Source of the DNA: a virus
Reading direction: 5' to 3' (one strand)
UHGV virus genome: UHGV-1364187
Length of the DNA stretch: 64,000 nucleotides
Both the position numbers and the translations under genes were made by a program. Below, in pieces: positions 2,612 to 57,422 of this stretch (positions are counted from its first letter, which is position 1; each line of letters starts with the position of its first letter). The notes beneath the pieces were generated by a model that did no database searches, was not told where the DNA came from, and saw only the letters and a program-made list of their open reading frames with translations.

Positions 2612-3990
2612 CTGCTGGAAACTCCTTAGAGCTAAATAAACTACAACGTAATCTGTAAAGATAAGCGTGAATGTTTGAAAATTATTTAGATTGGACAATC
2701 AGCAGCCAAGTTATCAATTATAATTTAACAATAAATGAAATTATATAAGTGATAGTAATACATATTACTATACTAAAATATATAAGGAGGTATTGTTATG
2801 AATGATAATTTCATAGTACCAGCATTTATTGTTAAAGAAAAAAGTAAGAGAAGAATTTATGGAACATCTTTTACAAAAAGAACAAGAACTTATATTTTAT
2901 GGCTACACTATATTTGAATATCCAGAAGAATGGAGACCTATAGAATGCTTTGATATTAAAAAAGGATTATACTTAATATCTAATTATGGTCGTGTGTATA
3001 GTATGCAACACAATGTGAATTATCGGTTTTACCTAATGATGGTTACAGACAAGTTGTATTACAAACAAAAGACAATAAAAGAAAGACATATTCCATACAT
3101 AGATTAGTTATATATACATTCATTCCAAAAACTGATGAAGATATAATAAATCAAAGAGATTATATTAATCATAAGAATCTTCATAGAGATTGTAATTTCA
3201 CATGGAATCTTGAATATGTAACACCTAATGAGAATACTATACACGCTATAATTAATAATGCCATTGGTGAAGATTATTCTTATGAATATAGTGGAAATTG
3301 GAGTAAAGGTGAAAGAACATTCGGTGAAAATAACGGAATGTCAGAGTGGACAGAAGAACAAGTTCATATTATATGTCAAGCATTACAAGATGGGAAAATC
3401 TACAAAAGATGCATTAACTTTAGCTGGAATTCCTGTAACTGATAACGCTATTTATAATGTAAGTCATATTGTTCAAGGTAAAAGGTGGAAGTATATTTCT
3501 AGTCAGTATAATATTCAACAGAAATGGAAGATAACTGATAAATCCGATTTTGTAATTCCAGTATGTGAATTGTTAGAGAAAGGTTATAGTCCATCTGAAA
3601 TTTATGAATTACTTCCAGATATTCTTGGTAAAAGAGATAATGTATTACCGTTTATACGAGGTATTAAAAGACGTAAATATTATACTAATATTAGTAAGAA
3701 TTATAATTGGTAAAAGGTTCAACGACTATCGAAAAGACATGTGCAAACATGGAACTTAGTAGAGTACACTTTATATAAAGTGGAAATGGGAGGCTTCTCT
3801 ATAAAGAGATGAAGATATAGTCTATCCGATATAGAAATATATCGCTATACTTATACGGATATTATAAATATTTCGTTATTTATAAAAATGATAGTCGTAT
3901 AAGTATTAAATTCCGAAGATGGGGACCAACTTTCGAGTAAAGTAGCGTATACGCTTGAAGCTAATGATGAGCTTGATAAGTATATGAATT
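2556..3990 (+). mobile_element. group I self-splicing intron carrying a degenerate HNH homing-endonuclease ORF; boundaries approximate
   Basis: 5' block TAACTGCTGGAAACTCCTTAGAGCT...AATCAGCAGCCAAGTT (CTGCTG/CAGCAG pairing) and 3' core GTTCAACGACTATCGAAAAGACATGT...ACATGGAACT.AGTAGAGTACAC...AGTGGAAATGG...GATATAGTCT (P7-like GACTAT/ATAGTC) are shared with the second intron at 37.4-37.8 kb. The HEG ORF sits in a peripheral loop between the two blocks. Confidence 0.7.
2799..3713 (+). pseudogene. HNH/NUMOD4 homing endonuclease gene, interrupted by at least three frameshifts
   Basis: Frame A 2799-: MNDNFIVPAFIVKEKSKRR. Frame B 2829..3107: PEEWRPIECF...YLISNYGRVYS (NUMOD4-like). Frame C ~3026..3440: GYRQVVLQTKDNKRKTYSIHRLVIYTFIPKTDEDIINQRDYINHKNLHRDCNFTWNLEYVTPNEN (HNH motif). 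Frame D 3258..3713: GKSTKDALTLAGIPVTDNAIYNVSHIVQGKRWKY (C-terminal HTH typical of HNH HEGs). The shifts coincide with the A6 run at ~2836, the T4 run at ~3027 and the A4 run at ~3408. Confidence 0.7.
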
Positions 3991-4206: not shown

Positions 4207-4380
4207 TATGGAAAAAGGAATTAAAGCATTAGGATTAGATATCCTTTTAAATGATAAAGATCAGAGAGTAAGAAGAAAAGTAGCAAGACATGGATATGGT
4301 TTAGATATCCTTGTTAAAGATGAAGATTATGATGTAAGAGCGGAAGCAGTTAAACAATTAAAATTAAGAAACAAATAATA
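4207..4380 (+). CDS. small leucine-rich-repeat-variant (LRV)-like repeat protein, 57 aa
   Basis: RBS AAAAGGAGAG. Internal duplication GLDILLNDKDQRVRRKVARHG / GLDILVKDEDYDVRAEAVKQL resembles the LRV/HEAT-like xxDxDxxVRxxAA repeat. Confidence 0.45.
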
Positions 4381-10390: not shown

Positions 10391-12016
10391 CTATATTAGT
10401 AATAAATATATTAATACTTCTTCCATAATAATAGAAGGTATGTTTTCTACAATAGTCCCATTGAGTTCTGGATCATCATAATCTACAATCTTAAAAGTAC
10501 TTACTGATAAAGTTGCAATGAAAGATAGAATATCTTCTACAAATCTATCATGTTCTTTTCTAGATTGAGAATATCTCATTTTCATCTCTTTCTCTATATT
10601 AGGGTCATAATACATATTGCTATCAACTCCAACAATATCATTCATTGAGAATACGTTAGATAGACCTACATATTTCTCTATTACATATTTAAAGTAGATT
10701 GAGTTAGATAGTTCTGTATATTCTTTTTTATTGATATTCTTCTTCCTAATAAGCTTAACAACATTACCACTTATTATATATGGTAATATTCTTAAGTTAT
10801 GGCCTTCTAATAATCTCTTAGCAGCTATTACTAGTTTGATATATTCTTCTATATTATCAAGAGATTTGATACTCATTGGATCTCCAAAATACTTCATGAA
10901 TAGATTGAATACTAATTCTTTTTGAAATTTATTGATCTTTCCTCCGAACTCTTTATAATAGAAATTTATTTCGTCTTGTTCAAAAGGACCATATAACATT
11001 TCTATTTGCTTCATTGTATATGAGCAGTTTACATCATTTTGCAATAACAATGATTCATCATTACGAATTAATAAACTCTCATATTTATCAAACTCACTAT
11101 TATTATCTTCATCTCTGTTAGATAATGATAAAGGAATGAAACTGTATTCCCATGTAATACCAGTAATTTGAAATCCATTGTTGTTATTGATAGAACCAAA
11201 GTTCAAACTAACAATGTTCTTATTATATACATACTTAGGTAATACATTTAAGAGAATATTATCTATACATGATAATGCATGTGTAGTAACGTTTTTACTT
11301 CTGATATCTTGTTGATCCCACAATCCAGTATCACGCTTATATGAAGTATTAACATTTGTAATTGCTGTTTCATATAACTTATTGTATAGATCAACATCAC
11401 TGTACAATTCGATATTCAATAATATATCACATATTGTAAGAATAAAGTTATTGTCATCTTCTGAAGATCTCATATACATAAAATGACATGCTAATGGAAT
11501 GATCATATTCATTAACATACTAATTCTCATTAACAGTTTAGCATGTCTATTAGTATAACAAATAGCTGAATTGTTATTCTTATATACTAAGTCTATTATA
11601 TAATTATCATCGTTCATATTCTTAACTTTCCATAGAATAGTAGGAGATAATATATATCTTTGTATATCAGCTAAAAAATTGTCTTTGGTATAAGAAGCTT
11701 CATAATCGATAAGATATTTTATTTTAGAATAAATCATAAATAACTCTTTATCTTGATCATAGAACTTCTCGAAATAGTTTAAATAATGACACATATGCTC
11801 TTTCATCTCTTGAGTTGCATAGCATCGTTTGGACGTTAGAATAAAATAATCTATAGATCGTTTATCTTCATCATCTAATCCATAGAAATCGAAAATAGGA
11901 GCAACAAATGCTCCTTTACAATGTGTGAATAACATATCATCCTCATTAGGAATCCAATCATCCACTTTAGGATTGTTATAAGATCTCTCTTCTGATATTG
12001 TTGCTGGTACTATCAT
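10391..12016 (-). CDS. hypothetical protein (541 aa) starting with the terminal tag MIVPATISEERS
   Basis: RBS AAGGAGG-10 nt-ATG; N-terminal IVPATI plus charged module. Confidence 0.55.
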   Translation of the reverse strand: MIVPATISEERSYNNPKVDDWIPNEDDMLFTHCKGAFVAPIFDFYGLDDEDKRSIDYFILTSKRCYATQEMKEHMCHYLNYFEKFYDQDKELFMIYSKIKYLIDYEASYTKDNFLADIQRYILSPTILWKVKNMNDDNYIIDLVYKNNNSAICYTNRHAKLLMRISMLMNMIIPLACHFMYMRSSEDDNNFILTICDILLNIELYSDVDLYNKLYETAITNVNTSYKRDTGLWDQQDIRSKNVTTHALSCIDNILLNVLPKYVYNKNIVSLNFGSINNNNGFQITGITWEYSFIPLSLSNRDEDNNSEFDKYESLLIRNDESLLLQNDVNCSYTMKQIEMLYGPFEQDEINFYYKEFGGKINKFQKELVFNLFMKYFGDPMSIKSLDNIEEYIKLVIAAKRLLEGHNLRILPYIISGNVVKLIRKKNINKKEYTELSNSIYFKYVIEKYVGLSNVFSMNDIVGVDSNMYYDPNIEKEMKMRYSQSRKEHDRFVEDILSFIATLSVSTFKIVDYDDPELNGTIVENIPSIIMEEVLIYLLLI

Positions 12017-24990: not shown

Positions 24991-25028
24991 AAAATAAAGA
25001 AGAGTACTAATACTCTTCTTTATTATCT
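24991..25028. terminator. terminator AAGAAGAGTACTAATACTCTTCTT
   Basis: palindrome with A/T tracts. Confidence 0.65.
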
Positions 25029-25029
25029 T

Positions 25030-25723
25030 TTATTCTTTTGGTTCTATTGTTGCTGGAACAATCAGTTGTTTAATCTCATTTACACTTTTATTGAGTTGAT
25101 TTTCCAGATTATCAATTCTAATATTCATTCCACATATAGCATTCATAATCTTTTGTTGATTACTTATAACAGATGGTATAAATATATCATTTAATAATTT
25201 ACCAATATTATATAACTGGTTAAGATTATCAATATCATACGAATTACCATTTATATCCATCATTGTTGTAAATGGATAATATTGAGTATTATCTGTAAAA
25301 GTATCTTTAACTTTATCTATTTCGTATATTGGATTATTCATTTGGAAATTTGGATCATGATTTTGATCTGTATATGTACCATTCATATAGATAGATGGTA
25401 ATAATTCATAAGAAATCCAATTCTTAAATTCTTCAGCGAATGGCATTTTAGAACTATAAATTAAATTGAATACATCTGGTAGTTTAATAAAATTTGTAGA
25501 ACGCTCTCTATTCATTGAATCTATTACCTGTTGTTTTGACAGGTAATCGCAATGTGCCTTTAATGCAAGAACGACTCTTTGGATGATAACCTAAAATATC
25601 TAACACATCATTAGCACAGAATAACGTATCCATCTGGTTACCACTCTCTGCTGGGATAATTCTTACACTTCCTAAATTGTTGAAAATAAACTCTTGTACT
25701 TTATTCATTTTTGATTCCTCCAT
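25030..25723 (-). pseudogene. Bro-N domain protein split into two ORFs (25723..25508 and 25515..25030); C-terminal tag QLIVPATIEPKE
   Basis: Both halves are paralogous to the 47344..46736 Bro-N protein. At the junction, AATAGA-ttcaatg-AATAGA looks like a 13-nt duplication that shifts the frame and creates a new ATG. Confidence 0.55.
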
Positions 25724-26083: not shown

Positions 26084-26860
26084 TTAATCAAAGAAACCTT
26101 TCTTAAGTTGACGTCTTTTGTTACCTTCTAGCTTATCAATATCAGGTTCTTGATTTTCATATATTTTATTTTGATCATTAGGTTGCCACATATTTGTACC
26201 GAATGGTGGTCTTCCGAAATATGCCATTAATGTACTAGCGGCATTGTACATATCTATAGATCCAATTAAATAATATAATTCCATAAATGAATCCATATTC
26301 ACTTCAAAACTATTTCCATTATTGATTGTAAATACAACACCAGAAACCATTTCTCCTTTATTATCCATTACACATGGATGTATTATTATATAATTACCTT
26401 GATTTAATCCTTTTATTATTAATTCATGTTGACCGAATATAACCATTTTATTATCTCTCGTACCATAAATTCCTGGTATATATTTACCGTCAACAATATC
26501 ACCCATAAACCAATGATATATTATTTCAAATTGACTTCGTATATATAATATATCACATGCCCGTATCATAATAAAATCTTTATTACCAAATTCATCTTGT
26601 CTAGAAGACTCAATAGATAAATAATATGTCATATGTCTTCTAATAGTATTTCCTGCAAATACATTACTATATTTTCTAGTTTCATATCTATATTCTGTAT
26701 GAAATGGCATCTTTTTACCATCATTACTCATATTTGATAATGAAACATTGAATCTTAATAAATAACTACATTTAGATGTCTTACTATATCCTAACCACAT
26801 TAAATCATCTGTTATTTTTTCATAATCATCATGTACAAATACAGCTGGAATTTCAGCCAT
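26084..26860 (-). CDS. hypothetical protein
   Basis: ORF. Confidence 0.45.
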   Translation of the reverse strand: MAEIPAVFVHDDYEKITDDLMWLGYSKTSKCSYLLRFNVSLSNMSNDGKKMPFHTEYRYETRKYSNVFAGNTIRRHMTYYLSIESSRQDEFGNKDFIMIRACDILYIRSQFEIIYHWFMGDIVDGKYIPGIYGTRDNKMVIFGQHELIIKGLNQGNYIIIHPCVMDNKGEMVSGVVFTINNGNSFEVNMDSFMELYYLIGSIDMYNAASTLMAYFGRPPFGTNMWQPNDQNKIYENQEPDIDKLEGNKRRQLKKGFFD

Positions 26861-27837: not shown

Positions 27838-27859
27838 TTGAAACTATGACAAAAATATG

Positions 27860-29428
27860 TCATAGTTTCTTTATTATAAATGCTGGTACTATATAAGCAG
27901 GTTTAATCATACATCCATTATATATTCCACTATTATCTATAAATGCTGGTATTTGTAAATTCTTTTTAGGAGTAAGTTCTTTAGATTTTGTTACTAATGT
28001 AAAATCATCTAAAGTTATTACATTATAGCTCTTAGCATATGTTTTAAATATATCTTTTTTACTATTAAAGAAATCTCTACATGATTTAAATCCTATATCT
28101 ACTATATCTATATATTTTGTATTATTGCCTCTTGTTCTACCTAAAGTTTGTCTCGCTAATACTTCTGATCTAAAAGGTTCGGCTAACATAATTGTCATTT
28201 GTAATCCTCGTATATCAGTTGCAGCTCCACAACTTTTAGTAGTACTAAGAATAATATCACATTGTAATTGGTCTTCTTTATTACCTTGAACTTTGGAATG
28301 ATATTTTCCAACACTCAGATTAGGATATTCATTTAATATCCAATTATATACATAGTCTATAGCATCTATAGTGGCTAAATATATAAGTGTCTTTCCATGT
28401 TTCATGGCTATATTAATTACTATTCTGAGCATATGAATGAAATTCTGTTGTTTACATACATAATTGGCATAATTTACAGAACTAAATCCTTTTCTAGTTC
28501 TGCAATTTTGTATATCTCTTGCTGTAGGTCTAGAATTATATTTAATTGCTATATAATCGGTATGTGGATCATTATCTCCATCAAACAAATCTATAGATGG
28601 GACATTTTTAAAGTAATAATTATATATTACATTCTCATCTCTACTACTTCTTGCTGGAGTAGCTGTAATATAGAATGTCTTATAAGTATTTGTATAGAAA
28701 TCTATTTTACAAATATTATCGAAGTTTAAATGTGCTTCATCATAAAATTTAAGTCCTATCTTCATAAATTTAAACAATTCTGTTATCTTATCCCATCCAT
28801 TCTTTTCACCATACGATCTTAATGTTGCATGTGTAGCCAATATATATTTATATTGAGATATATCTTTTTGTAATAACCTTACTATGGAACCAGAACCCTC
28901 TATAATATATATTTCATCAGATGATGTATTTGTATATTCCATTATACAATTTTTCCACTGTTCTATCCATCCACTAGAATTCATTATAAATATACTTCTC
29001 ATCTTATATAAAGTGGTAACAGCTATAGAGCAATATGTTTTACCTTTACCAGTATTAAGATTTAATGCAAGTTGAGAATACTTCTTTGTGAAATCATATT
29101 CCTTTACACCATACATAAATGCTATAGCTCTTTTTTGTATATCATCTCTTGGCATATATTTCATTTTAGATGGTTCTATATGATCATATTTATCTACATT
29201 TCTATCTATAGATGCATATGATTGAAACATATTTTCTAACATTGGAACATCTATTCCTCTTGGTAATATAAGCTGTTGAGTATCTTCTTTGTATTCCATT
29301 CCTTTAAAATATGAAGAGAATGTAATGTCATTCCAGAGACTGAACATATACTCAAGTTGTGGCATATCACAAAGTGTATATTTATTTATAACTATACTTG
29401 ATTGTCTTAATTGTATCTTGCTAGACAT
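27860..29428 (-). CDS. SF2 DEAH-box DNA helicase; C-terminal tag AYIVPAFIIKKL
   Basis: Walker A LNTGKGKT; motif II FYDEAH; motif III ITATPAR; motif VI QTLGRTRG. Confidence 0.75.
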   Translation of the reverse strand: MSSKIQLRQSSIVINKYTLCDMPQLEYMFSLWNDITFSSYFKGMEYKEDTQQLILPRGIDVPMLENMFQSYASIDRNVDKYDHIEPSKMKYMPRDDIQKRAIAFMYGVKEYDFTKKYSQLALNLNTGKGKTYCSIAVTTLYKMRSIFIMNSSGWIEQWKNCIMEYTNTSSDEIYIIEGSGSIVRLLQKDISQYKYILATHATLRSYGEKNGWDKITELFKFMKIGLKFYDEAHLNFDNICKIDFYTNTYKTFYITATPARSSRDENVIYNYYFKNVPSIDLFDGDNDPHTDYIAIKYNSRPTARDIQNCRTRKGFSSVNYANYVCKQQNFIHMLRIVINIAMKHGKTLIYLATIDAIDYVYNWILNEYPNLSVGKYHSKVQGNKEDQLQCDIILSTTKSCGAATDIRGLQMTIMLAEPFRSEVLARQTLGRTRGNNTKYIDIVDIGFKSCRDFFNSKKDIFKTYAKSYNVITLDDFTLVTKSKELTPKKNLQIPAFIDNSGIYNGCMIKPAYIVPAFIIKKL

Positions 29429-29465
29429 ATATAAACACCTCCGTTTTTATTTATCTGTTATAAAA

Positions 29466-29506
29466 TATATAAAAAATAAAAAGAAGAGAGTAGTACTCTC
29501 TTCTTT
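29466..29506. terminator. terminator AAGAAGAGAGTAGTACTCTCTTCTT
   Basis: palindrome plus T tracts. Confidence 0.65.
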
Positions 29507-29507
29507 T

Positions 29508-30452
29508 TTAGTATAAGTTATCAAGTAAATAATCATATAGTATACTTAATATAATTGGTTTTATATAATCTTTAATACTTCCACATTCAAATAATGATTC
29601 GTCATAATTTGAGTTTATACATCTGCAATACATTGTAGCAACAATTCTATTAATACATTTGTATATATGTTCAACAAGATCATTAATACTATTAATATAC
29701 ATATTATCATGTAAATTAGTTTCGATTTTAATACCATATGAGTTATCTACTGTTGTGAATGATATAAAATTAAGTTTTGAACCATTATTATATAATGGTT
29801 CAAATATAATTATAGGATATAGTGATGTATCGAATAATAATGAAGAGAACATAATATCTAATTCTCTCTTATAACAATCATTCATATAATTAAAGAAATC
29901 ATATATATTGAATGTAGTCAATACACCATTACATATATTATTGTCTATATATTGTATAATTACGGATCTAATAAAATTTGTTCTTGAATCTAAATAATAA
30001 TCTGCAAACATATTCGCATCAATTTCATAGTCTATATTTTCATAATTATCTCTATAATTTTTATCATCTATTCCAGTTATTTCATATTTATTATTTTCCA
30101 TTTGCCATATATGTCTGCATTCATGTGCTAATGTATGAGCTAATCCTCTAATAAATATATGCATATTAAATCTTCTATGAAAATATATAATATTATTCAC
30201 AAAACAATCTATATTATATCTATCTTCATCTTCACTTGTTAGCATTCCTAATAAACCACCATTACTCATTTGTAACCCTTCATCATATAAAATGTATATA
30301 CATATAGGCTTCTTTGTTATATTCAATTCCGCAGTTAGATCATCTATAAATATCATACATAAGTCATATATTATTTTCTTTCTATCTGTAATAACGTTTG
30401 TAACTTGTATATTTTTATCAAATGTTGCTGGAATAACTGGCATTCTATCCAT
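29508..30452 (-). CDS. putative HExxH metallopeptidase; N-terminus MDRMPVIPATFDKN
   Basis: GLAHTLAHECRHIWQ contains HECRH; N-terminal terminal-tag module. Confidence 0.5.
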   Translation of the reverse strand: MDRMPVIPATFDKNIQVTNVITDRKKIIYDLCMIFIDDLTAELNITKKPICIYILYDEGLQMSNGGLLGMLTSEDEDRYNIDCFVNNIIYFHRRFNMHIFIRGLAHTLAHECRHIWQMENNKYEITGIDDKNYRDNYENIDYEIDANMFADYYLDSRTNFIRSVIIQYIDNNICNGVLTTFNIYDFFNYMNDCYKRELDIMFSSLLFDTSLYPIIIFEPLYNNGSKLNFISFTTVDNSYGIKIETNLHDNMYINSINDLVEHIYKCINRIVATMYCRCINSNYDESLFECGSIKDYIKPIILSILYDYLLDNLY

Positions 30453-30457
30453 AATCT

Positions 30458-31450
30458 CTATCTCCTATCTGTAATATAACGATCAAATAATATATATAAT
30501 TCTCTTGTAAATGATACTATAAACGAATCTATGGATTGTAATAAAGCTACACATACAAATGAATCATCTTTACTAATTCCCTCATCGTATATAATTTCAG
30601 ATGCTATATCTATAATAGATGAAACAAATAATGATTTAGTATAGCTTATAATAGACTCTAAATCATAATTTATCTTGATATTACAATTGAATTTTATAAC
30701 GCATGTATCTCTATTTAAATTATAGTCTATTATATAATAGACATCGTTCTGATCTTCCAAATACCAATTTTGATAAGATATCATTGTGTCTATATTCATT
30801 TCATCAAGTATAGATTGAATGTAATATGAATTATTAGAGACATAATATATCCAATGTATTAAATCGAACTCTGGTATATTGTTATATACACTATTTATTA
30901 TAACACAATGGATTAGTCTATATATGATACCATCTAAATATAGTTTATTGATTATCTGATTTGTATAACTTTCTATATCAGCATTATATTCATCATCTTC
31001 TATAATATCATAACCATCTACATATTCACAACAAGTCCATCCATATCCGAATATATTTGTAAATTGATATATAGACCTCATTATCTTTATAAATGATGGA
31101 AGTATTTTGATAAGATATTCTTCTACAGATAACATACTATATTTATTATCTATACTATACATATTTATATATATTCTGAATGTGTCTTTCATATTAAAGT
31201 CTGATGGATATTCTATATCCATTTCATATTCATTGCTAGAATACACAAACTCCAACACAATTCTATCAGCTACATCGCTTAAATCTAGATCATATTCTAA
31301 TATAGGTTTTATCCTATATAGAAAGTCTCTCAATATACGAGTTCTATCTTGATATATTGTTGCTGGTGATATTAGTTTTTTATGTTCTTTGTGTATTTCT
31401 GCTGGTACTATTAAATTATATTCTTTACATATCTCTGCTGGTATAATCAT
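30458..31450 (-). CDS. hypothetical protein with three tandem N-terminal tag repeats
   Basis: N-terminus MIIPAEICKEYNL-IVPAEIHKEHKKL-ISPATIYQDRTRIL. Confidence 0.55.
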   Translation of the reverse strand: MIIPAEICKEYNLIVPAEIHKEHKKLISPATIYQDRTRILRDFLYRIKPILEYDLDLSDVADRIVLEFVYSSNEYEMDIEYPSDFNMKDTFRIYINMYSIDNKYSMLSVEEYLIKILPSFIKIMRSIYQFTNIFGYGWTCCEYVDGYDIIEDDEYNADIESYTNQIINKLYLDGIIYRLIHCVIINSVYNNIPEFDLIHWIYYVSNNSYYIQSILDEMNIDTMISYQNWYLEDQNDVYYIIDYNLNRDTCVIKFNCNIKINYDLESIISYTKSLFVSSIIDIASEIIYDEGISKDDSFVCVALLQSIDSFIVSFTRELYILFDRYITDRR

Positions 31451-31456
31451 ATATAA

Positions 31457-31481
31457 TCCTCCTTTTTAAAAGAGATGAAGA
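31457..31481 (-). terminator. intergenic hairpin AGAGATGAAGA-loop-TCTTCATCTCT between the beta-prime C-fragment gene and the next gene
   Basis: 11-bp stem. Confidence 0.55.
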
Positions 31482-33551
31482 TTATTCTTCATCTCTTTTT
31501 ACTATCGTTGCTGGAACTACCATATCATTATTATATTTAACTTCTGTAGAATAATCCCCAGGAGCATTAATAAAATCATAATAGTTAACCATAAAGAATA
31601 AATCCATAAAACTTGGAGATCTCTTCTTAAATGTTGCTGCTGTATAAATAGCTCTCTTAGTTCTTTCATATGATAATGAGATAGCTACACTAGGATGATT
31701 ATTCAATGCTTTACTTAATGTCAAGATTGTATATCTGTTATTGTTAGGAATAGACCAATCTGGTTTTTCTAAGATTTCATCAGATTCAAGTCCAAGTCTA
31801 ATTTGATTTGCTATAATAACTTCACAGTGTATAGCATCTGTCTTTACATCACCCTCAATACATGTTTCAACAAATGTTTGGATTAATGAATCTATAGTAT
31901 GTTTAGATGTAACTTCGCTCTTATTGATAAGATTAGTTAATCTCTTAAGAGTATCAGCAAGACCATTATTTCTAATCTGCATCATAAATATATTCATTTC
32001 ATTAATCTCATCAAATGGTATTGTAACAATACCATCAACATCAGTATATTTATCTATCATAGCAGATAGTTCTGGTGTAAAGTAAATATCATCATCATCT
32101 TCTGTTGACAATGAGAATAAGTTTCCTTCTTCATCTCTAACTTTAATCTCACATACAGATTGATTATACTCATAGTTTTCATATTCATTTTCAATATGAA
32201 TTTCACTATCAATAATCAATAAAGTGTCTTTTATCTCTATATCATCTCTAATAGATATAAGATTTCCATCTAATATAAAGAAGTCACCAAATTGTTTAAC
32301 CCATTTAAGTTCTTTAATTTTCGCTTCTAATAGATGCTTTGCTGATAAAAGTTTTTGAGTCAATTCTGATGATAATAATTCAGCTGCAATCTTACCAATA
32401 TTGATATCCCTATTAGTGTATGCAACATCCCCATAACATTTATAACAAATACCATTACCTTCTGAAAATGATTTACATTTAGCAGGAGATCTAAAGTAAA
32501 CAGTTTTACCAATAAGATCCATTTCCATTCCTGTTATCATAAACTCTTGTCCATCTGGATAGAATCTATAATATCTAGAGATATATTTCTTCAGCATTTC
32601 ATAACTAGTAATAGTTATCTTAACGAAATTTCTTGTACCACAATCATAATTTGGATCTTCATTAAGCTCTGTATCTTGATTATTTAAACCTAATAAACGT
32701 GCTAAATGCCCACTATCAGATACATTAGTCTTAGATAATAATTGTGCAGTACGACCACTATATTCCTCAATAGTGTGTTCTGTAGCATTACTTAATCCAC
32801 CAACAATATAGTTTGAATTAATAATCTTACTAAAGATCCCACCAACTCCATTTGGTTTAGCACCACCAGCTACAGCAAACTCTCTATGCTGTTTCTTATT
32901 AATAGCTTCTCTAGCTTTAAATGAATCTTTATAACAATGATCTTCTGAATTTTTAATAATATCAACAAGTTCATCATTAAGTTGATTTGCTATATTATTA
33001 ACTTCATTTATAGGATATCCAGATAAATCACAATGCATAATATCGTATGCTCTCGGGTTTTCATTCATAAGATCTCTATAATCTTTAAGATTAGCAGTAT
33101 TAGCCAAGAACATACTAAATTCATCTATAGATTTGAATTGATATTCGATATCATCTATGATATTATTTAACCTAATATTATCCATATCTTTTCTATATGG
33201 AATAATAAGATAATTATTGATAAAGTCTGCTATCATGTCAGCTACAAAATCATCTTCAAATACTAGATGTTTTGGTTCGATATGATTTCCTGTCATAACT
33301 ACAAGTTTCCATAATGCTATATTAGTATAACTATCTGGTATTGACAAATCAACATCTGTACCATCGTCAAACACATAAGTGATAAAGTTGGACATTACTT
33401 GATCACTATTAATTCCATCTCTTAATACATTTAAGAGAGAGTTAAAGTAATAATCTACATTATCAGATGTAATATCTTTTGTGTAGATTATTGTTTTCTC
33501 GCCTCTTGTAAAACTTACAAAAGGACCATAGTTTTCTGGATAATCAAACAT
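31482..33551 (-). CDS. multisubunit RNA polymerase beta-prime homolog, C-terminal fragment; C-terminal tag [14 protein letters not shown]
   Basis: [53 protein letters not shown] aligns to the beta-prime trigger-loop region SPLTC..[63 protein letters not shown] aligns to [22 protein letters not shown] (region F). Confidence 0.7.
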   Translation of the reverse strand: [689 protein letters not shown]

Positions 33552-36326: not shown

Positions 36327-37373
36327 ATGGTCTTAGAAGAAAATTTAAATGATATGGAAGTTATCAAAAGATACAAGCAATTTTTTAAGGAGATGATTTG
36401 GTTTAATAAACCAAACATATCTGAGCAAGAATTAGAAGATGTAATGAATTGGTCAATACAGAAGAGAATCAAAAATTCATCATTAGAATTATATGATTCT
36501 TATAAGGAAAAACGAGCAGATTCATCAGTATTAGAATGGCTAGAATACTTCTATGCTAATGAACCAATTATAACTCCCAATGGGGTTATGTTTAAAAAAC
36601 ATAATGAAGAGCTTAATCCTGTGAATAAAATGATACAGGGATTCTTAAAAACACGTGCTAAATACAAAAAAGAAATGTTTAAATATCCTAAAGGATCTCG
36701 TGAATTTGAAAAATATAACCTACTTCAACTTCTCTCCAAGATTGATGCTAATAGTATATATGGTTGTTTAGGTAATTGGAGTGCTGTATATTATAACGTA
36801 AATGTTGCTAGTTCAGTTACAGCATGTGGTAAATCTTCTATTTCAGCAGCAGGTTTAGCATTTGAACAGTTCTTAGCAAATAACGTTAAATTTAGAAAGT
36901 TAGACGAAGTTATAGTATTTATTAATCATATCATTAAAGAAAAACCAAATAGAAAATTCAATGATAAAGATATTCTAGATAGAGATATTACAGTAGAAGA
37001 ATGTTTTATAAAAGTAATGTCTACATGTGGTCATGGTTATACTCCTTCTATGGAAGATTGTGAAATCATATGGGATATTATTAGTAAACTTAACAGTGAA
37101 GATCTTAATAGAATATACTATAAGAATAATCTATTAGAATTCTTTGACAATAAAGTAATGACTAATATGGTTATAGAAGTATTAAAGAGACTCAATAAAC
37201 CTTGGATGGATCCGAATAAAGTTCCAAAAGAAATTGAACTTGAAATGGATACAATGTGGGATTTAGTAAGTGAATATGTATTTTATAAATATCAAATCAT
37301 TGATAGACAAGATAGATTAGAGTTTCTTCCAAGAAAAATTACATGTATTATAGACACCGACTCTTTTGCATAA
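36327..37373 (+). CDS. family-B DNA polymerase, C-terminal (palm/thumb) part, exon 1
   Basis: Motif B QLLSKIDANSIYGCLGN (KxxxNSxYG) followed by ASSVTACGKSSI. Motif C TCIIDTDSFA (DTDS) lies at the very end of the ORF. No motif A (DxxSLYPS) and no exonuclease domain, so the N-terminal half must be encoded elsewhere. Confidence 0.75.
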   Translation: MVLEENLNDMEVIKRYKQFFKEMIWFNKPNISEQELEDVMNWSIQKRIKNSSLELYDSYKEKRADSSVLEWLEYFYANEPIITPNGVMFKKHNEELNPVNKMIQGFLKTRAKYKKEMFKYPKGSREFEKYNLLQLLSKIDANSIYGCLGNWSAVYYNVNVASSVTACGKSSISAAGLAFEQFLANNVKFRKLDEVIVFINHIIKEKPNRKFNDKDILDRDITVEECFIKVMSTCGHGYTPSMEDCEIIWDIISKLNSEDLNRIYYKNNLLEFFDNKVMTNMVIEVLKRLNKPWMDPNKVPKEIELEMDTMWDLVSEYVFYKYQIIDRQDRLEFLPRKITCIIDTDSFA

Positions 37374-37778
37374 TAAACTGTTTTATTATGTAAATAGGAG
37401 CATTATATAGTAATATATAATGAAAACCCTTTTAATTGCTGGGAAGCCTTAAAGCTCACCTGCCTATATTTTAATGAATATAGGAACGAAAGTAGAAACA
37501 AGTGGTGAGATAGTATATGGTGTAAACCTAAGTACTGCAAACAATGGGTAATCAGCAGCGAAGTTTCTTATAAAGTTATAAGAAGAACGTTCAACGACTA
37601 TCGAAAAGACATGTTTATATAAACATGGAACTGAGTAGAGTACACTCAAGTGAGTGGAAATGGAGGGGGTCTTATTTTATATAAGATCATGATATAGTCT
37701 GCTCACTATGGAAACATAGTGAAGTTCATAAGAGAACTGCATAGAATTAACGACTCTATGTGAACATAAAGGAATATT
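37368..37778 (+). mobile_element. ORF-less group I intron inserted immediately after the PolB DTDS codons; boundaries approximate
   Basis: TTAATTGCTGGGAAGCCTTAAAGCT...AATCAGCAGCGAAGTT and GTTCAACGACTATCGAAAAGACATGT...ACATGGAACTGAGTAGAGTACAC...AGTGGAAATGGAGGGGG...GATATAGTCTGCTC match the intron in the beta-prime gene block for block (P7-like GACTAT/ATAGTC). A P9-like hairpin CACTATGgaaaCATAGTG follows. Confidence 0.75.
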
Positions 37779-38849
37779 TTGAACTTAGATTTTTGGTATA
37801 GATTTATCAAAGATAAAGTAATCGGTATTGATATGAAAATTAAACATGAAATGTATGACATTGCAGAAATCATTAAAGCTGATGAATTTGGTGATAGAGA
37901 AATGATGAAGCCTGCAGAGATAGTAGATATCGAAGATGATTATGATTTCTATGAAGATGAAACAGTAGAAATGGAAAGATTAATCAATCCTGCAAAATTA
38001 GTACCAAATGACTCATTAAGATATTCTATAATAAATATTATAGCATACTTATGTGGTAATATGATTAATGAAGAGATGGTATTATACACAAAACAGAACA
38101 ATTCTTATAGTCCTGATAGACCATGTAGTCTTATTATGAAGAATGAATTCTTATTTAAAAGAGTTTTATTGACAAATGTAAAGAAAAGCTACGCTAGCAT
38201 CATAGAGGTTCAGGAAGGAAATATAGTACCATCTTCCAGTTCATTGGACGTGAAAGGATTACAAATTAGAAAATCAACACTACCAAAAAGAACAAGAGAT
38301 CAATTACAAAGTATATTATATGAAGATATACTAAACTCTGGAGATAATCTCGATCAAAGATGCATACTCAAAGATATTATATTATTAGAAAAACAAATTT
38401 ATAAATCACTTACATCTGGTAGTAAAGAATACTTTAGACCAGCACAAGTTAAAGCTATGGGATCATATGAAAATCCACTAAGAATTTCTGGATTTAAGGG
38501 ATGTGTTGTATGGAATGAGTTAACAGATCTTAATACAGAAAAACATGATCTTAATATTAGAAATGCTGTTGATATTATCAAAGTAGTTTTAAATGCAAAA
38601 ACTGTCGATAAATTAAAAGATTTTCCTGATGTATATGAGAGAGCTGTGAAGCTATTAAACGATCCATCATTTGCAGGGGGAATTAATGGTATATCTGTAC
38701 CATTAGGAGTAGAAACACCAGAGTGGTTATATCAAATTATCGATTATAATACAATTATTAATGATAATTTATCAGTAATGCCATTAGAAAGTGTAGATAT
38801 AATTATTGGAAATTCCAATATAAACTATTCAAATATGGTGCAAATGTAA
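37779..38849 (+). CDS. family-B DNA polymerase, exon 2 (thumb)
   Basis: Open frame resumes right after the intron core. The ORF-track TTG at 37779 is not a real start. Exact 3' splice site not determined. Confidence 0.6.
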   Translation: MNLDFWYRFIKDKVIGIDMKIKHEMYDIAEIIKADEFGDREMMKPAEIVDIEDDYDFYEDETVEMERLINPAKLVPNDSLRYSIINIIAYLCGNMINEEMVLYTKQNNSYSPDRPCSLIMKNEFLFKRVLLTNVKKSYASIIEVQEGNIVPSSSSLDVKGLQIRKSTLPKRTRDQLQSILYEDILNSGDNLDQRCILKDIILLEKQIYKSLTSGSKEYFRPAQVKAMGSYENPLRISGFKGCVVWNELTDLNTEKHDLNIRNAVDIIKVVLNAKTVDKLKDFPDVYERAVKLLNDPSFAGGINGISVPLGVETPEWLYQIIDYNTIINDNLSVMPLESVDIIIGNSNINYSNMVQM

Positions 38850-38850
38850 A

Positions 38851-38886
38851 AAAATAAAAGAAGAGTCAATTAAGACTCTTCTTTTA
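38851..38886. terminator. bidirectional terminator AAGAAGAGTCaattaaGACTCTTCTT
   Basis: 10-bp stem with A6TAAA / T4ATT flanks. Confidence 0.7.
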
Positions 38887-39469
38887 TTATTGTTGCTGGA
38901 ATAATTAATTTATTGTATCTCATCTCTGCATGTGTGCCATACTCATCATATGGAAGATTATTATCAACTCCAGCAAAGTTTAAAAACTCGTTAGAATCTA
39001 CTAAATTATTATTGCTTATAATATTTCCTATAGATTCTAATGATCCATCTAATTGATTTTTATCAATTTCTAATGTATTAGTAATTCCTTTATCACTATC
39101 ACCCCATTGAACATGATATTCATATGGAGCATCCGATATTGGATTACCATATAAATCACATTGTCTAACTTGACATAATCTCATATCAACTCCAACTGTA
39201 GGTCTCATAATTCCATCATAATTATAAAAACAATTAGTTTGAGTATAAAAATGTACAACACAATCATTTGATATATCTGTGTTTATGTAGTTAGATTTAA
39301 TATAGTCTATAATCCATTGTGTAGTGTTACTATCGTTTCTATATACAAAATCGTTTCTAAACATAATTTCATCATAGAATTCGCTTGTATCTGGATTTAG
39401 GTTACAGTCATCAGATACAATAAGACAATTAGTCTCATAGTTTAATAATACATATAAATTTTTTAACAT
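38870..39469 (-). CDS. hypothetical protein; C-terminal tag KLIIPATIIKEES
   Basis: The ORF-track GTG start lies inside the RBS AAAAGGTGG; trimmed to the ATG at 39469. Confidence 0.5.
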   Translation of the reverse strand: MLKNLYVLLNYETNCLIVSDDCNLNPDTSEFYDEIMFRNDFVYRNDSNTTQWIIDYIKSNYINTDISNDCVVHFYTQTNCFYNYDGIMRPTVGVDMRLCQVRQCDLYGNPISDAPYEYHVQWGDSDKGITNTLEIDKNQLDGSLESIGNIISNNNLVDSNEFLNFAGVDNNLPYDEYGTHAEMRYNKLIIPATIIKEES

Positions 39470-41689: not shown

Positions 41690-42697
41690 TTAAATTGCTA
41701 CTGAAGCTTTAATAGCATCACCACATTTATATCCATTAATCTTAATATCTTCTAGTTTAATATTTCTAATATCTTCGCCTAATAGATCTTTAGTAAATTC
41801 AATCTTAGGTAAGTCGTATAATTCTCTAGATAGATATTCTTTTGCCTGATCAATATGATTTTGGTAAATATGTGTATCGCCAAAATTATATGTCATTGTT
41901 CCAACTTGTAATCCACTAATAGCACCCATCATATGTAAAAAGATTCCATATTCTGCTAAATCAAATGGAACCCCTAGAATACTGTCAGCACTACGTTGAT
42001 TTACAATCATATGTAATTTATCATTGATTACTAAAAACTGGATAGAAAATACACAAGGTGGTAAATCTACATAAGGAACACTAGCAGTATTCCATGAATT
42101 AAGAATAATTCTTCTTGAATCTGATTTACTCTTAATAAGTTTTTGTGTAATATCTAATTGGTCTACAATGTTCACAACGACTTCTTGTTCTTGAGTATTC
42201 ATATTATTCATTTCTACATGTTTATTATACTTCCAAGCATTACCATAGATATCTTCATATACTGTAAGTTCTCTAGATGTAATTTCATCATTAAGAATCT
42301 TTTGTTCAAAGATATCGAGTTGTTCTCTATATAGTTTAGCAAATTCTTCATCCTTATCTTTTAATACAGTCCAATTGTCTGGGAATACTGGTCCTGTATA
42401 TTTTTCATTTTCTGGGCATTTTCCCTCAATATATCTTTTAAATTTCCATTCTGTCCAGATATGTACATTTTGCTCTAATAATGTCTTTAAGTTTTGTTCT
42501 CCATTAATGAACCATAAAAGTTCTTTAATAGCTGTTCTATAAGCAGTTCTTTTTCCAGTAACAATAGGAACACTACCATCTGATAAATCAAATTTCATAC
42601 TATAACCAGGAATACGGATAGTTCCTACTCCAGTTCGGTCTGTGCTAACTTCACCTGTTTCTAAAATAGTTTTAATCATTTCTTTATATTGTTTCAT
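41690..42697 (-). CDS. thyA: thymidylate synthase family enzyme (ThyA-like; a dCMP or dUMP hydroxymethylase cannot be excluded)
   Basis: MKQYKEMIKTILETGEVSTDRTGVGTIRIPGYSMKFDL...VTGKRTAYRTAIKELLWFINGEQN and DLPPCVFSIQFLV...NQRSADSILGVPFDLAEYGIFLHMM...GDTHIYQNH align with the ThyA signature including the catalytic Cys (PPC). Confidence 0.75.
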   Translation of the reverse strand: MKQYKEMIKTILETGEVSTDRTGVGTIRIPGYSMKFDLSDGSVPIVTGKRTAYRTAIKELLWFINGEQNLKTLLEQNVHIWTEWKFKRYIEGKCPENEKYTGPVFPDNWTVLKDKDEEFAKLYREQLDIFEQKILNDEITSRELTVYEDIYGNAWKYNKHVEMNNMNTQEQEVVVNIVDQLDITQKLIKSKSDSRRIILNSWNTASVPYVDLPPCVFSIQFLVINDKLHMIVNQRSADSILGVPFDLAEYGIFLHMMGAISGLQVGTMTYNFGDTHIYQNHIDQAKEYLSRELYDLPKIEFTKDLLGEDIRNIKLEDIKINGYKCGDAIKASVAI

Positions 42698-46623: not shown

Positions 46624-46735
46624 TATAAACATCTCCTTTAAAATTTACATTATTATTTATTATTAACAGATTTTCTGTTAATGATATTTATATCTTTCTT
46701 CTTTCGGAACAAGTATTGCTGGAACAACCATATGT

Positions 46736-47344
46736 TTACCATCTACATATTTTTGAACTATTAAGAAGTTGTTGTTGCATTTGCTGTATTTGATTGTTTA
46801 CATTTTGTTCCAAATTAGTTATTCTATTGTCGATATGATCACAAACATTTCCTAACATACTAGACACTACTCTAGTTATATCATATGTAAGCTGTTGTGA
46901 ATTAAAATGGAATTTAGTTTCACCTAAATCATCTTTGATATACGTTTCATTCATATTACCATATATCGCTTCCATTATATTTTCAGCATCAACTACAGGA
47001 TTAGATACATGATAATTTGGATTATGTTGATTTGATGTATATTGTCCAGTGTGATAAATATCTATAAGAACTTCATGTGTAACCCAATTAAAGAACTCTG
47101 TAGCTTTTGGCATTCTAGAACTTTTCACTAAATCCAATAGACCTGATAAAGAAACAAATGTCATATTATTTCGTCTTCCTAAAGAATCGACGCTACTCCA
47201 AATCGACGTATCGTCCTTTTTACAATGTTTACGTATTGCATCATTTGTCCTTGAATATCCTAAAATCTCACATACATCTCTACCACAATATAATACATCT
47301 TGTTCGTTTCCTCCTTCTGGTATAATAAATTCTAACATTTCCAA
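46736..47344 (-). CDS. Bro-N domain protein; a second frame continues to a C-terminal tag (VQKYVDGKHMVVPAILVPKEER)
   Basis: N-terminus MEMLEFIIPEGGNEQDVLYCGRDVCEILGY... is Bro-N-like and paralogous to 25723..25030. The tag that ends its paralog is present here only in another frame downstream of the annotated stop (46690-46760). Confidence 0.6.
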   Translation of the reverse strand: MEMLEFIIPEGGNEQDVLYCGRDVCEILGYSRTNDAIRKHCKKDDTSIWSSVDSLGRRNNMTFVSLSGLLDLVKSSRMPKATEFFNWVTHEVLIDIYHTGQYTSNQHNPNYHVSNPVVDAENIMEAIYGNMNETYIKDDLGETKFHFNSQQLTYDITRVVSSMLGNVCDHIDNRITNLEQNVNNQIQQMQQQLLNSSKICRW

Positions 47345-55265: not shown

Positions 55266-57422
55266 ATGGTTCAACAACAATTTACGTATCAACAGAAAGT
55301 ATACTATGATACTTCTACAACTAATGCATCATTTATACGGATGCATTATTATTTAAAACAATCTGGTAGAACAAATAATATGTTTATGCTGTCTATATTT
55401 GATCCAGATCTTATAGGTATTAATCCTAGAGATCCAAGATTAAATAAGATTATGAAACTTAAAATTTTTAAAGAAGTTAAAGTAAATTTCTGGTATTTCA
55501 TAAGAGAAGTTATTAGGATACCTGACCAAGGTGGTGCTATAGGTAGCGGTAAACAATATGAACTTCATCGTGGAAATATGGCTATGAACTTTGGATTTAT
55601 ACTTAACTGGTGTATGTTTGTAGAGTTTCCTCGACAGAATGGTAAAACGATTAGTGCTGTATGTTGGTATTTGTGGTTATTTAATTTCGGAACAACTAAC
55701 TCTGAAATTATGTTTATTAATAAATCATTCTCTGACTCTAAACTTAACCTTGAACGTCTTAAAGATATTAGAGAAGCACTTCCTGATTATCTAAGAATGG
55801 ATCAACCTATTAGAGATAGAGACGGTAAGCTTATTAAACCAGTATCTAGGGTAGAAACATTAGAGCATATTACTAATGGTAATAAAATTAAAACTCTTGC
55901 ATCAGCAACAAGTGAATCTGTTGCTAATACTAGAGGACGTGGATGTACTCAACCTTGTCAATGGTATGATGAACATGCATTCATACCTCATGTTGATTTA
56001 GTATATAAATCAGCTACGCCTGCATACAAAACAGCATCTCAAAATGCTCGTACTAATGGTAAAAACTATGGTATTCTTATTACAACAACACCTGGTGATT
56101 TGACAACTAAATCTGGTAAAGCATCTAATGCTGTTAGATTAGCAGCTACTCCATTTAATGAGAAATTCTACGATTTACCATTAAATGAATTACAAGAGAT
56201 TATTTCAAGAAATACAGATTCTCCATTTGTATATATTAGATACACATATCAACAACTTGGTAGAGGAGAAGATTGGTTTAGAGAAATTTGTATTCTTATG
56301 CAAAAAGACTGGAGTGCTATTAGACGTGAAGTATTACTTGAATGGTCTACTGCATCTGATAATTCTCCATTTACAAAAGAAGATTTAAATAAAGTAAAAC
56401 AATGGATAGTTCAAGAACCTATTCATACTATGATGATTAGAGGATTCTTTGTAAATATTTATTCTCAAATGGATCCAAGTGTATCCATGTTCCAATATCC
56501 ACCATTAATAGGTGTCGATGTATCTGGTGGATATCAACGAGATTCATCTGCTATTACTATAGTAGATTCAAAAGATACAAAAGTAGTAGGAGATTTAAAT
56601 TATAACTATATTAAACAAGACGATTTAGCTGCAGTTATATATGATCTAGTTACGCTTTATATGCCAACTGCAATTGTAAACATTGAACGAAATGGTGGAT
56701 TTGGTGCTTCTGTATTATCTAAACTTGTAAAAACTAAGATTAAACGAAATTTATATTATGAGATTAAAGATAGAGTAATAGAAGAACGTGTAGTTAATGG
56801 ATCTGTAAATAAAATTAAAAAGAAAGTGAAATGTTATGGATTCGATAATACTAAGAATAGTCGTAATAGATTGATGGATATTCTTAGAAACAGAATGGAT
56901 AATCATAAAGATAAGTTTATATCTCCTATTATATATAGAGAACTGGAAGGACTTATTGTAACAAAAGATGGAAGAATAGATCACTCTACAGAAACTCATG
57001 ATGACCAAGTATTTTCTTATCTATTAGCACTATATATGTGGTATGATGGTAAGAGTATGAAAGAAACTTGGGGATTAGACAAGAGAGAATTATTAACAGA
57101 TGAAGAAAGTGATGAAGTTATTAATGATATTAGTGAAAAAGAATATAATATCATGAAAGAACTAGGTCTAGTTGATAATGAAGTTGTTAAATCTCAATTG
57201 GATAAACTCGATAAGTCTATAACATATGAACAATATAGACAGAAAGAATATGAAGAAGATCAAAAAGCTTTACAACAACTCATTAGAACAAATCCAAGAG
57301 CATTACAAGAATATGCAAGATTAAATGCATTAGATCCAGAAGAATTAAAGATACAAACTAATACTGGAGTATTTGTTGTGCCAGCATCTGTATATGATAT
57401 GAGTCATATAGATGATGAATAA
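55266..57422 (+). CDS. terminase large subunit (T4 gp17-like)
   Basis: Walker A FPRQNGKT (compare T4 SRQLGKT). Nuclease-domain IGVDVSGGYQRDSSAITIV. C-terminal HDDQVFSYLLALYMW. Confidence 0.8.
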   Translation: MVQQQFTYQQKVYYDTSTTNASFIRMHYYLKQSGRTNNMFMLSIFDPDLIGINPRDPRLNKIMKLKIFKEVKVNFWYFIREVIRIPDQGGAIGSGKQYELHRGNMAMNFGFILNWCMFVEFPRQNGKTISAVCWYLWLFNFGTTNSEIMFINKSFSDSKLNLERLKDIREALPDYLRMDQPIRDRDGKLIKPVSRVETLEHITNGNKIKTLASATSESVANTRGRGCTQPCQWYDEHAFIPHVDLVYKSATPAYKTASQNARTNGKNYGILITTTPGDLTTKSGKASNAVRLAATPFNEKFYDLPLNELQEIISRNTDSPFVYIRYTYQQLGRGEDWFREICILMQKDWSAIRREVLLEWSTASDNSPFTKEDLNKVKQWIVQEPIHTMMIRGFFVNIYSQMDPSVSMFQYPPLIGVDVSGGYQRDSSAITIVDSKDTKVVGDLNYNYIKQDDLAAVIYDLVTLYMPTAIVNIERNGGFGASVLSKLVKTKIKRNLYYEIKDRVIEERVVNGSVNKIKKKVKCYGFDNTKNSRNRLMDILRNRMDNHKDKFISPIIYRELEGLIVTKDGRIDHSTETHDDQVFSYLLALYMWYDGKSMKETWGLDKRELLTDEESDEVINDISEKEYNIMKELGLVDNEVVKSQLDKLDKSITYEQYRQKEYEEDQKALQQLIRTNPRALQEYARLNALDPEELKIQTNTGVFVVPASVYDMSHIDDE

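Follow-up and report, generated by a model that had tools for sequence, protein, structure and literature searches.

A terminal peptide tag re-spelled by lineage on replication and non-virion transcription proteins of uncultured AR9-related jumbo phages

Genomic context of the tag

The stretch of DNA analyzed here (the window; 64,000 nucleotides, GC content of 26%) was taken from UHGV virus genome UHGV-1364187 and corresponds to positions 6605 to 70604 of a 256,505-bp metagenomic contig (ENA ERZ27229639 k119_250412). Its source is a jumbo phage that encodes multisubunit RNA polymerases (RNAPs) of its own, and the window also codes for a divergent PolB, a GroEL-like chaperonin, a primase, ThyA, the major capsid protein, the prohead protease, and TerL. 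An earlier sequence-only reading had drawn attention to a short peptide at the ends of four consecutive genes (positions 27860 to 33551), and every peptide that it quoted was found at those gene ends on the minus strand. This peptide, spelled (I/V)(I/V)PA(T/E/F)I in the genome of the window, is referred to below as the tag. We describe its carriers and its spelling, which changes from lineage to lineage and does so in concert on unrelated proteins of the same genome.

The nearest cultured phages are of the AR9/PBS1, BpSp, Listeria LPJP1, phiR1-37, and Staphylococcus S6/Machias type and show only ~27% identity at the beta-prime fragment; closer relatives number in the hundreds in metagenomes. 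Orthologs were compared across ~90 related metagenomic loci (L001 and so on), and the functional names of tag carriers are to be read as assignments by orthology. Two gene orders known from AR9 are kept (polB - g153 - g154 - g155 - g156 and GroEL - g227 - gp226 - primase). This synteny supports the identification of the beta-prime fragment as the C-half of the non-virion RNAP subunit, of the DEAH helicase as gp156, and of the product of positions 10391 to 12016 as a gp226-type promoter-specificity subunit.

The first of the four genes (31482 to 33551, minus strand) encodes the beta-prime C-half, the ortholog of AR9 gp154 (PHROG 3015, 2e-47; synteny polB/g153/g154/g156). A regular expression search located its C-terminal tag, VVPATI, at 31503 to 31520 (minus strand), where it is followed by VKRDEE and the stop codon. 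Beta-prime orthologs (n = 120) keep a tail motif of lineage-specific spelling. The last of the four, the SF2 DEAH helicase gene (27860 to 29428, minus strand; ResIII, 5.5e-11; PHROG 16), is the ortholog of AR9 gp156, and the protein ends in ..AYIVPAFIIKKL*. The C-terminal tag that the sequence-only reading had seen here is present but is not single: two more copies, LQIPAFID and IKPAYI, lie upstream of it, so that the minus strand holds QIPAFI (27938 to 27955), IKPAYI (27890 to 27907), and IVPAFI (27875 to 27892). Among the 59 helicase orthologs looked at, the tail agrees with that of the beta-prime protein encoded by the same genome; the copy number varies from 1 to 3 across relatives, with a period of 9 to 13 residues.

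The two genes in between code for remote paralogs that form a tandem expansion in the closest relatives. The g33 protein (29508 to 30452, minus strand) starts with MDRMPVIPATFDKN, carries an N-terminal tag, VIPATF (30420 to 30437), and contains the sequence LAHECRH; its HExxH motif makes it a putative peptidase, and a Pfam scan gave no family above its cutoff. HE[CYF]RH is kept in all four of the g33-type paralogs, each of them N-terminally tagged, and is lost in the degenerate paralog g34 (30458 to 31450, minus strand). The g34 protein starts with MIIPAEICKEYNLIVPAEIHKEHKKLISPATIYQDRTR, in which the tag stands in three tandem copies, IIPAEI (31430 to 31447), IVPAEI (31394 to 31411), and ISPATI (31355 to 31372), and its ortholog in L086 (37% identity) likewise has three (LIQPARII/KIIPAIIS/MIMPATII). 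The proposed triplication was thus found at g34 and again, C-terminally, at the helicase. Every member of the g33/g34 family bears one to three N-terminal tags despite bodies of only 25 to 37% identity.

Occurrence and position of the tag

A six-frame search of the window with [ILVMS][ILVMS]PA.[IFVL] gave 15 matches, of which 10 lie inside real genes and 2 are one frameshift off a gene end. The strict expression [ILVM][ILVS]PA.[ILFV] likewise has 10 matches in called genes, for which the composition of the 18,420-residue window proteome predicts 0.37, and the maximum reached in 2,000 shuffles was 4. All 10 gene matches are located at most 45 residues from a protein end, a zone that holds 36% of the residues (p = 4e-5). 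Matches were not comparably frequent at internal positions or in noncoding frames, and in related phages, the orthologs bear it at corresponding termini; neither of the two outcomes that the sequence-only reading had named as refuting was thus obtained.

As the sequence-only reading had noted, the module also sits on other, unrelated proteins of the window, all encoded on the minus strand. The gp226 ortholog, a promoter-specificity subunit of the non-virion RNAP (10391 to 12016; synteny GroEL/g227/gp226/primase), has the N-terminal tag MIVPATI (11996 to 12013). The single-stranded DNA-binding protein (SSB)-like g30 (26084 to 26860) carries EIPAVF (26837 to 26854) at its N-terminus, directly ahead of a conserved DYEKITDD. 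C-terminal copies were found on g28, a Bro-N domain protein that is frameshifted together with g29 (25030 to 25515; IVPATI, 25045 to 25062), and on g44, a protein of 199 amino acids (38870 to 39469; IIPATI, 38888 to 38905, tail IIKEES*). The tag is thus displayed on an N-terminal extension, on a C-terminal extension, or, in PolB, in an internal loop, with N-termini used as often as C-termini; there are one to three copies per protein, spaced by 9 to 13 residues.

PolB qualifies the claim that the module is strictly terminal. Two copies, YDIAEII (37854 to 37874; no Pro) and MKPAEI (37905 to 37922), both on the plus strand, lie in an acidic loop ~40 residues after the DTDS motif. The loop carries the local spelling also in L001, L002, L023, and L063, and AR9 PolB lacks it entirely. 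We rejected the reading of the DNA polymerase as "split," in which the second half would begin with a tag: what separates the halves is a group I intron (37377 to 37721, plus strand; Rfam RF00028, 81.6 bits) that interrupts the gene directly after DTDS. The "polymerase genes" at 36327 to 37373 and ~37770 to 38849 are therefore exons of one enzyme, and the tags are internal. The homologous PolB intron of L001 holds an HNH_3 endonuclease open reading frame (ORF).

Across relatives, the element can be written in general as phi-x-[P/G]-phi-x-[Y/F/I], with acidic residues after it. Of the 117 distinct beta-prime tails, 60 (51%) show this form compared to 7% of control windows (Fisher p = 4e-34), usually 1 to 10 residues from the C-terminal end, and in these 60 tails, D or E follows the motif at 44% compared to a background of 15%.

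Selection on the peptide

A tag that sits at gene ends might be a by-product of a nucleic acid signal, such as a promoter, a terminator, or a processing or recombination site. The clustering of copies at gene ends, the recurrence of CCAGCA, and the hairpins that overlap several charged C-terminal tails could be taken to favor such a signal. The sequence-only reading had stated that the Pro-Ala pair is always CCA GCA. This was correct for the copies it listed but not for g30 (CCA GCT), the KPAYI copy of the helicase (CCT GCT), or PolB (CCT GCA). The codon pair is also uninformative: CCAGCA was present in 11 of 14 motif Pro-Ala pairs and in 9 of 14 nonmotif pairs of window genes (Fisher p = 0.68), which identifies it as a codon-pair preference of the genome.

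In contrast, synonymous codons vary freely among tag copies in the window and in eight other genomes, that is, in every genome examined, as the same reading had argued for the window. In L086, two unrelated proteins both end in MIVPAIIVNK. Their tag DNA is 86% identical, the flanks fall to 30 to 38% (random level), and within the shared peptide, only synonymous differences occur. The free synonymous variation and the L086 pair demonstrate that selection acts on the peptide and not on a DNA site; no nucleotide conservation beyond the needs of the peptide was seen in the codon variation or in the 11/14 versus 9/14 comparison. Moreover, all copies in or next to a gene share its orientation, and all but two share its frame, both exceptions being one frameshift away. 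Start codons precede the N-terminal and internal copies, and the peptides are conserved per lineage across genomes of 26 to 41% GC. A signal at the DNA level is effectively refuted by the codon analysis, and we give it almost no chance of being the cause of the tag.

The charged stretch that had been described as part of the module needs a distinction. An acidic bias after the tag is general; part of the charged residues, however, is encoded by the 5′ arms of hairpins together with the stop codon. Terminator-like hairpins are enriched between 24.9 and 39.6 kb (15 versus 2.2 expected), with examples on the minus strand at 38853 to 38888, 31466 to 31500, 27840 to 27869, 29478 to 29508, and 24993 to 25024. 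In several genes, the coding sequence runs into such a hairpin, whose purine-rich 5′ arm and loop consist of the last codons together with the stop, so that the terminal Lys, Glu, and Asp residues are dual-coded; the g44 tail IIKEES*, for example, is encoded by the 5′ arm of the hairpin at 38853 to 38888.

Dialects and co-variation within genomes

Orthologs across relatives keep the tag at the same protein position and spell it in genome-specific dialects, several of which were assigned by visual inspection. The C-terminal element of beta-prime reads MIVPAIIVNKDED, LIIPAKIAKP, VVCPVTFKTED, LINPMTFSKE, IINPFIHIDDEEE, ELIKGIIYDKEEE, LKPLFVKVDK, or EPMIFFEDP, among others, and the dialects of relatives include xPVTF, RGIxYD, INPFIH, xGMxY, LFxKIE, and CPIYYL. 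Within one genome, the spelling is shared by nonhomologous proteins. In L001, beta-prime has VVCPVTF, the helicase YPVTF..VPVAF..SPVKF, the g30 ortholog LIEPVSF, an HNH protein MINPITFYDNFINPITF, and PolB INPVTF..EAVTF. L002 shows IRGIIYD on beta-prime, KGVSYYD..VRGVTYQ..IRGVTYDD on the helicase, and INGVSY..YRGVYYD on PolB. In L003, the INPFIHI of beta-prime recurs as INPFIHL twice on the helicase, and in L023, IKGMMY on beta-prime is accompanied by three xGMxY copies on the helicase, MEQGMTY on g30, and VKGMEY..IRGMVY on PolB. Same-genome dialects were seen likewise in L034 ([KR]xLFxKI[ED]), L029 (IFMKRD), L063 ([KR]PFx[FI]), and L067 (CPI[YE][YF]L).

Regular expressions for the dialects matched only the genome from which they were derived (10 matches for the window, 8 for L001, 7 for L002, and 3 for L003), with 0 to 1 matches in the off-diagonal comparisons. 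Co-variation was further quantified by permutation for pairs of nonhomologous proteins in 23 to 35 distinct genomes. Tails of the same genome scored higher than those of different genomes for beta-prime and helicase (19.2 versus 15.0), for g30 and helicase (17.6 versus 13.8), and for g30 and beta-prime (15.3 versus 13.1), in each case with p ≤ 2e-4, and two negative controls gave p = 0.55 to 0.64.

TerL was rejected as a carrier by this analysis. Its C-terminal VVPASVYD belongs to a TerL-specific element, which does not change along with the dialects (p = 0.54 and 0.90). The element, phi-P-x-x-phi-[FY]-x-x-[FY]-Y, was found in the window at 57375 to 57422 (plus strand; VVPASVYDMSH) and, as YRIPDSVFTSFYD, VQLPTNLFTDFY, and YQLPDNIYTNFY, in the TerL proteins of L003, L009, L015, and L018; it may be a tail that docks to the portal or another partner. 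A further tag-like element that does not track the genome dialect, M..MP[SAG][FY][LI][KT][KR], is located at the N-terminus of the virion protein whose gene directly precedes that of the tail sheath (window 61416 to 61460, plus strand; L002 17877; L003 17251), with the spellings MGMPSFLKKEG, MVPAYITKKND, and MANTDMPGFLKRDG.

The dialects also bear on the possibility of a receptor supplied by the host, for which its beta-clamp, its SSB, or partners of FtsZ might be considered. Host hubs are exploited by many proteins of phages and plasmids, a hydrophobic and acidic motif would suit grooves of this kind, and the IPAFI of the window resembles the C-terminal peptide of FtsZ, DIPAFLR. However, host grooves are highly conserved, whereas related phages use radically different dialects (xGMxY, INPFIH, LFxKIE, CPIYYL), and no dialect fits QL[SD]LF or the PIP box. 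We therefore consider a host receptor very improbable.

Structural context and cultured relatives

In AF2 models, the N-terminus of g30 (residues 1 to 14) and the beta-prime tail (residues 663 to 689) had predicted local distance difference test (pLDDT) values below 50 and no secondary structure. The tag thus resembles a short linear motif: it is short, it lies in a predicted disordered segment, and its position is kept while the protein bodies diverge to 25 to 37% identity. A placement in disordered N- and C-terminal segments is also typical of degrons, and the tag might be an unfoldase or degradation signal read by the phage AAA+ protein g53, a member of the classic AAA clade, or by host Clp/Lon, for timed turnover or remodeling. 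Sites recognized by host proteases are conserved, though, while the dialects diverge fast; homologs of g53 occur in many jumbo phages beyond the clade; and destabilization is hard to reconcile with a helicase that is essential and yet keeps three copies, or with the internal copies of PolB. These observations make a degron very improbable.

In AR9, BpSp, LPJP1, phiR1-37, and Machias, the helicase and beta-prime stop at the conserved core and have no tag extensions. The tag system thus arose as an innovation within the uncultured clade, on top of an AR9-like apparatus.

The g30 protein combines a two-repeat beta-beta-beta-beta-alpha domain of the PC4-like/PUR/Whirly type with a disordered linker, and domains of this type constitute a single-stranded nucleic-acid-binding fold (PMC7549692). 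Foldseek and hidden Markov model comparisons identified AR9 g161 as a tagless homolog that ends, like an SSB, in ..DDKDGGINF*. The argument that g30 is a clade-specific hub was dropped for this reason. By analogy with RPA, a hub role of g30 would still be possible, and the evidence fits a role as client equally well. The g30 family also has a second terminal motif, independent of the dialect: after the disordered linker, an invariant Phe-Phe stands 2 to 6 residues from the C-terminus (..KKGFFD*, ..KSFFEQIDEL*; window 26084 to 26100, minus strand).

Range of tagged proteins

Taken over the window and its relatives, the carriers comprise two non-virion RNAP subunits, the SF2 helicase, PolB, a DnaB-like helicase, g30, homing endonucleases, Bro-N proteins, and the g33/g34 family. 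The divergent DnaB-like helicase (PF20307) was found in L067, where it is tagged at the C-terminus, and the HNH_3 homologs of L001 and L065 are each tagged in the dialect of the genome in which they reside. The structural proteins of the window, ThyA, and GroEL have no tag. Targeting to the virion, which had been considered, does not agree with this range: the structural proteins lack the tag, and the carriers are by orthology a non-virion RNAP, PolB, helicases, and homing endonucleases.

The same range of proteins is what a DNA compartment would be expected to admit, including selfish homing endonucleases that need access to phage DNA. The tag could thus be a targeting or import signal, a "zip code," for a replication compartment or condensate built by the phage, with an importer or scaffold as the co-evolving receptor. 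Like nuclear localization signals, tags function at either end or in loops and can be multiplied, and the window encodes a Cdc48/Bcs1-like AAA ATPase. On the other hand, that ATPase occurs across many unrelated jumbo phages, the primase and RNAP beta are untagged, and the window, which covers 25% of the genome, showed no gene for a shell, chimallin, or tubulin. Import into the phage nucleus of chimalliviruses (PicA/Imp) is comparable in its selective handling of polymerases, helicases, RNAP, and homing endonucleases; abstracts on that system, however, name protein import factors and no linear peptide signal, and chimalliviruses are distant from the AR9-like clade studied here. We regard a compartment label as unlikely, though worth keeping in view. 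If true, it would be the first peptide "localization signal" of a bacterial virus, and a private code per lineage, with a fast co-evolving importer, would also shut out the proteins of competing phages and host nucleases.

Comparison with known docking motifs and candidate receptors

Clamp-binding motifs are the bacterial QL[SD]LF, the PIP box Qxx[LIM]xx[FY][FY], and the LDFLF-like C-terminus of the T4 type, with gp45-binding C-termini on T4 gp43, gp33, and gp55. Like the tag, they are short and hydrophobic, often have acidic flanks, occupy termini or loops of numerous proteins that act in replication, repair, and transcription, and can be repeated. One hub serves many clients, among them RNAP specificity factors, so that gp55 and gp33 of T4 are paralleled here by the gp226-like and beta-prime subunits. 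The display is also of the clamp type, with a PolB loop, the C-termini of the helicase and the DnaB-like protein, the C-terminus of the non-virion RNAP beta-prime subunit, and the N-terminus of the gp226-like subunit. The phage tag differs in that it has no Gln, has Pro or Gly at its center, is re-spelled in each lineage, and uses N-termini as often. None of IVPATI, xPVTF, RGIIYD, INPFIH, xGMxY, LFxKIE, and CPIYYL fits any of these clamp-binding consensus sequences.

A second comparison is offered by RPA70N- and RPA32C-binding motifs, the SSB C-terminal tip DDDIPF, and the acidic tails of T7 gp2.5 and gp4. In these networks as well, helicase, polymerase, and SSB are connected through acidic and hydrophobic peptides that their disordered tails display, and here the SSB-like g30 takes part. 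The phage tag, however, is placed on the partners and on the N-terminus of g30 and is not simply the C-terminal tip of the SSB; half of its copies stand at N-termini or internally, and in most cases the chain continues beyond the tag. Literature searches did not find a described motif of this kind. The tag would work like a hub-docking motif, yet it lies outside the known motif families.

A short linear docking motif recognized by a common partner had been the initial proposal, and the behavior of the tag in these sequence comparisons is consistent with it. Most of the partners proposed with it fared less well. GroEL is also present in the tagless AR9. The AAA+ protein g53 is Cdc48-D2/Bcs1-like and not RFC-like, and it has homologs in many unrelated jumbo phages, whose tag status was not examined, so that it is a poor universal partner. 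The g33 protein belongs to a tiny family that occurs only among the closest relatives, and it bears the tag itself, which makes it unfit as the partner in a clade-wide system. We also rejected family 23, a small protein encoded between helicase and polymerase, because it is absent from the window. A clamp- or hub-type factor fits best among these candidates; no clamp family was matched, however, when the ~50 proteins of the window (a quarter of the genome) were scanned against PHROGs and Pfam. This PolB group has been reported to lack a classical clamp (PMC7824862).

Accessory genes and neighboring elements

A decayed or frameshifted NUMOD4/HNH homing endonuclease gene (2798 to 3713, plus strand; NUMOD4, 2.8e-7) has a strong Shine-Dalgarno sequence and starts with MNDNFIVPAFIVKEK, the tag lying at 2813 to 2830. 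Group I intron matches below the threshold flank it at 2613 to 2751 (25 bits) and 3710 to 3844 (28 bits), downstream of the RNAP beta ORF (1067 to 2611) and on the same plus strand. They probably represent a second ORF-bearing group I intron, in the RNAP beta gene, which would then continue downstream. On the minus strand, VVPAIL(VPKEE) at 46711 to 46728 lies one frameshift past the stop codon of the Bro-N protein g56 (46736 to 47338). Two tag-only mini-ORFs, considered as free peptides, are better read as the frameshifted termini of the HNH/NUMOD4 gene and of a Bro-N gene. Single frameshifts, often in A-runs, break accessory or mobile genes, namely, two Bro-N genes and the HNH endonuclease gene (25508 to 25723 with 25030 to 25515; 46700 to 46800; 2830 to 2860; 3107 to 3258); they could reflect genuine decay, programmed frameshifting, or assembly error. 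The core genes of the window appear to be free of frameshifts.

Besides the window, 6.6 kb of the source contig were covered. A probable further N-terminal tag carrier is a 123-amino-acid ORF located 1.5 kb upstream of the window on the source contig (L092, 4707 to 5078, plus strand), with ..NNFEMPAVLKDDD at residues 9 to 21. At 4208 to 4378 (plus strand), the window contains a 56-amino-acid remnant of a repeat-containing gene family (MxKGIKALGxxxxxxxxxxxMIYEMNKEY..; DUF7666, faint HEAT matches), several paralogs of which are scattered in the close relative L086 (4047 to 6401, 14138 to 14374). A canonical thymidylate synthase gene (41690 to 42697, minus strand) suggests that thymine is probably not replaced by uracil in this phage, unlike in its distant relatives AR9 and PBS1.

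Discussion

The tag changes in concert on a dozen unrelated proteins of DNA transactions, which argues for an evolving receptor and hence for one that is most probably encoded by the phage. We propose, with a probability of roughly 0.72, that the tag is a short linear docking motif that co-evolves with a single phage-encoded receptor or hub, which gathers the replication and late-transcription machinery. According to this model, all copies of one genome would bind the same receptor. As the groove of that receptor drifts between lineages, every tag of the genome would have to follow, and genome-specific dialects would arise. The likely outcome would be that tagged proteins are recruited to, and concentrated at, replicating phage DNA.

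Several points weigh against this proposal. None of the candidates considered above was identified as the receptor. Since the window comprises 64 of 256 kb, the list of clients is incomplete; the primase and RNAP beta lack the tag; and the generic regular expression misses about half of the beta-prime tails. Outside beta-prime and helicase, an automated k-mer census of clients gave a weak and crude signal (0.77 versus 0.12 matches per genome, mostly PolB loops), and some of the dialects, as mentioned, were assigned by eye. The permutation of co-variation ignores phylogeny; genome relatedness should, however, inflate the cross-genome scores, so that the procedure is conservative.

Jumbo phages of the AR9/phiKZ type have to organize their replisome and their own RNAP with a divergent PolB and no recognizable sliding clamp. 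In one large uncultured clade, found in metagenomes of which some have IMG/VR sample ids resembling those of the Human Microbiome Project, a shared and co-evolving tag now marks members of this machinery and implies an organizing receptor. The tag provides a ready bait for the hub and a predictor of new members of the machinery in metagenomes, such as the g33/g34 family and tagged orphans, and the dialects offer natural co-evolution data from which the position of the binding groove might be worked out. It might also serve as a portable recruitment tag. Finally, homing endonucleases that carry the dialect of the resident genome suggest that a protein needs the tag to reach phage DNA, and such tag-dependent access of mobile genes bears on the competition between co-infecting phages.

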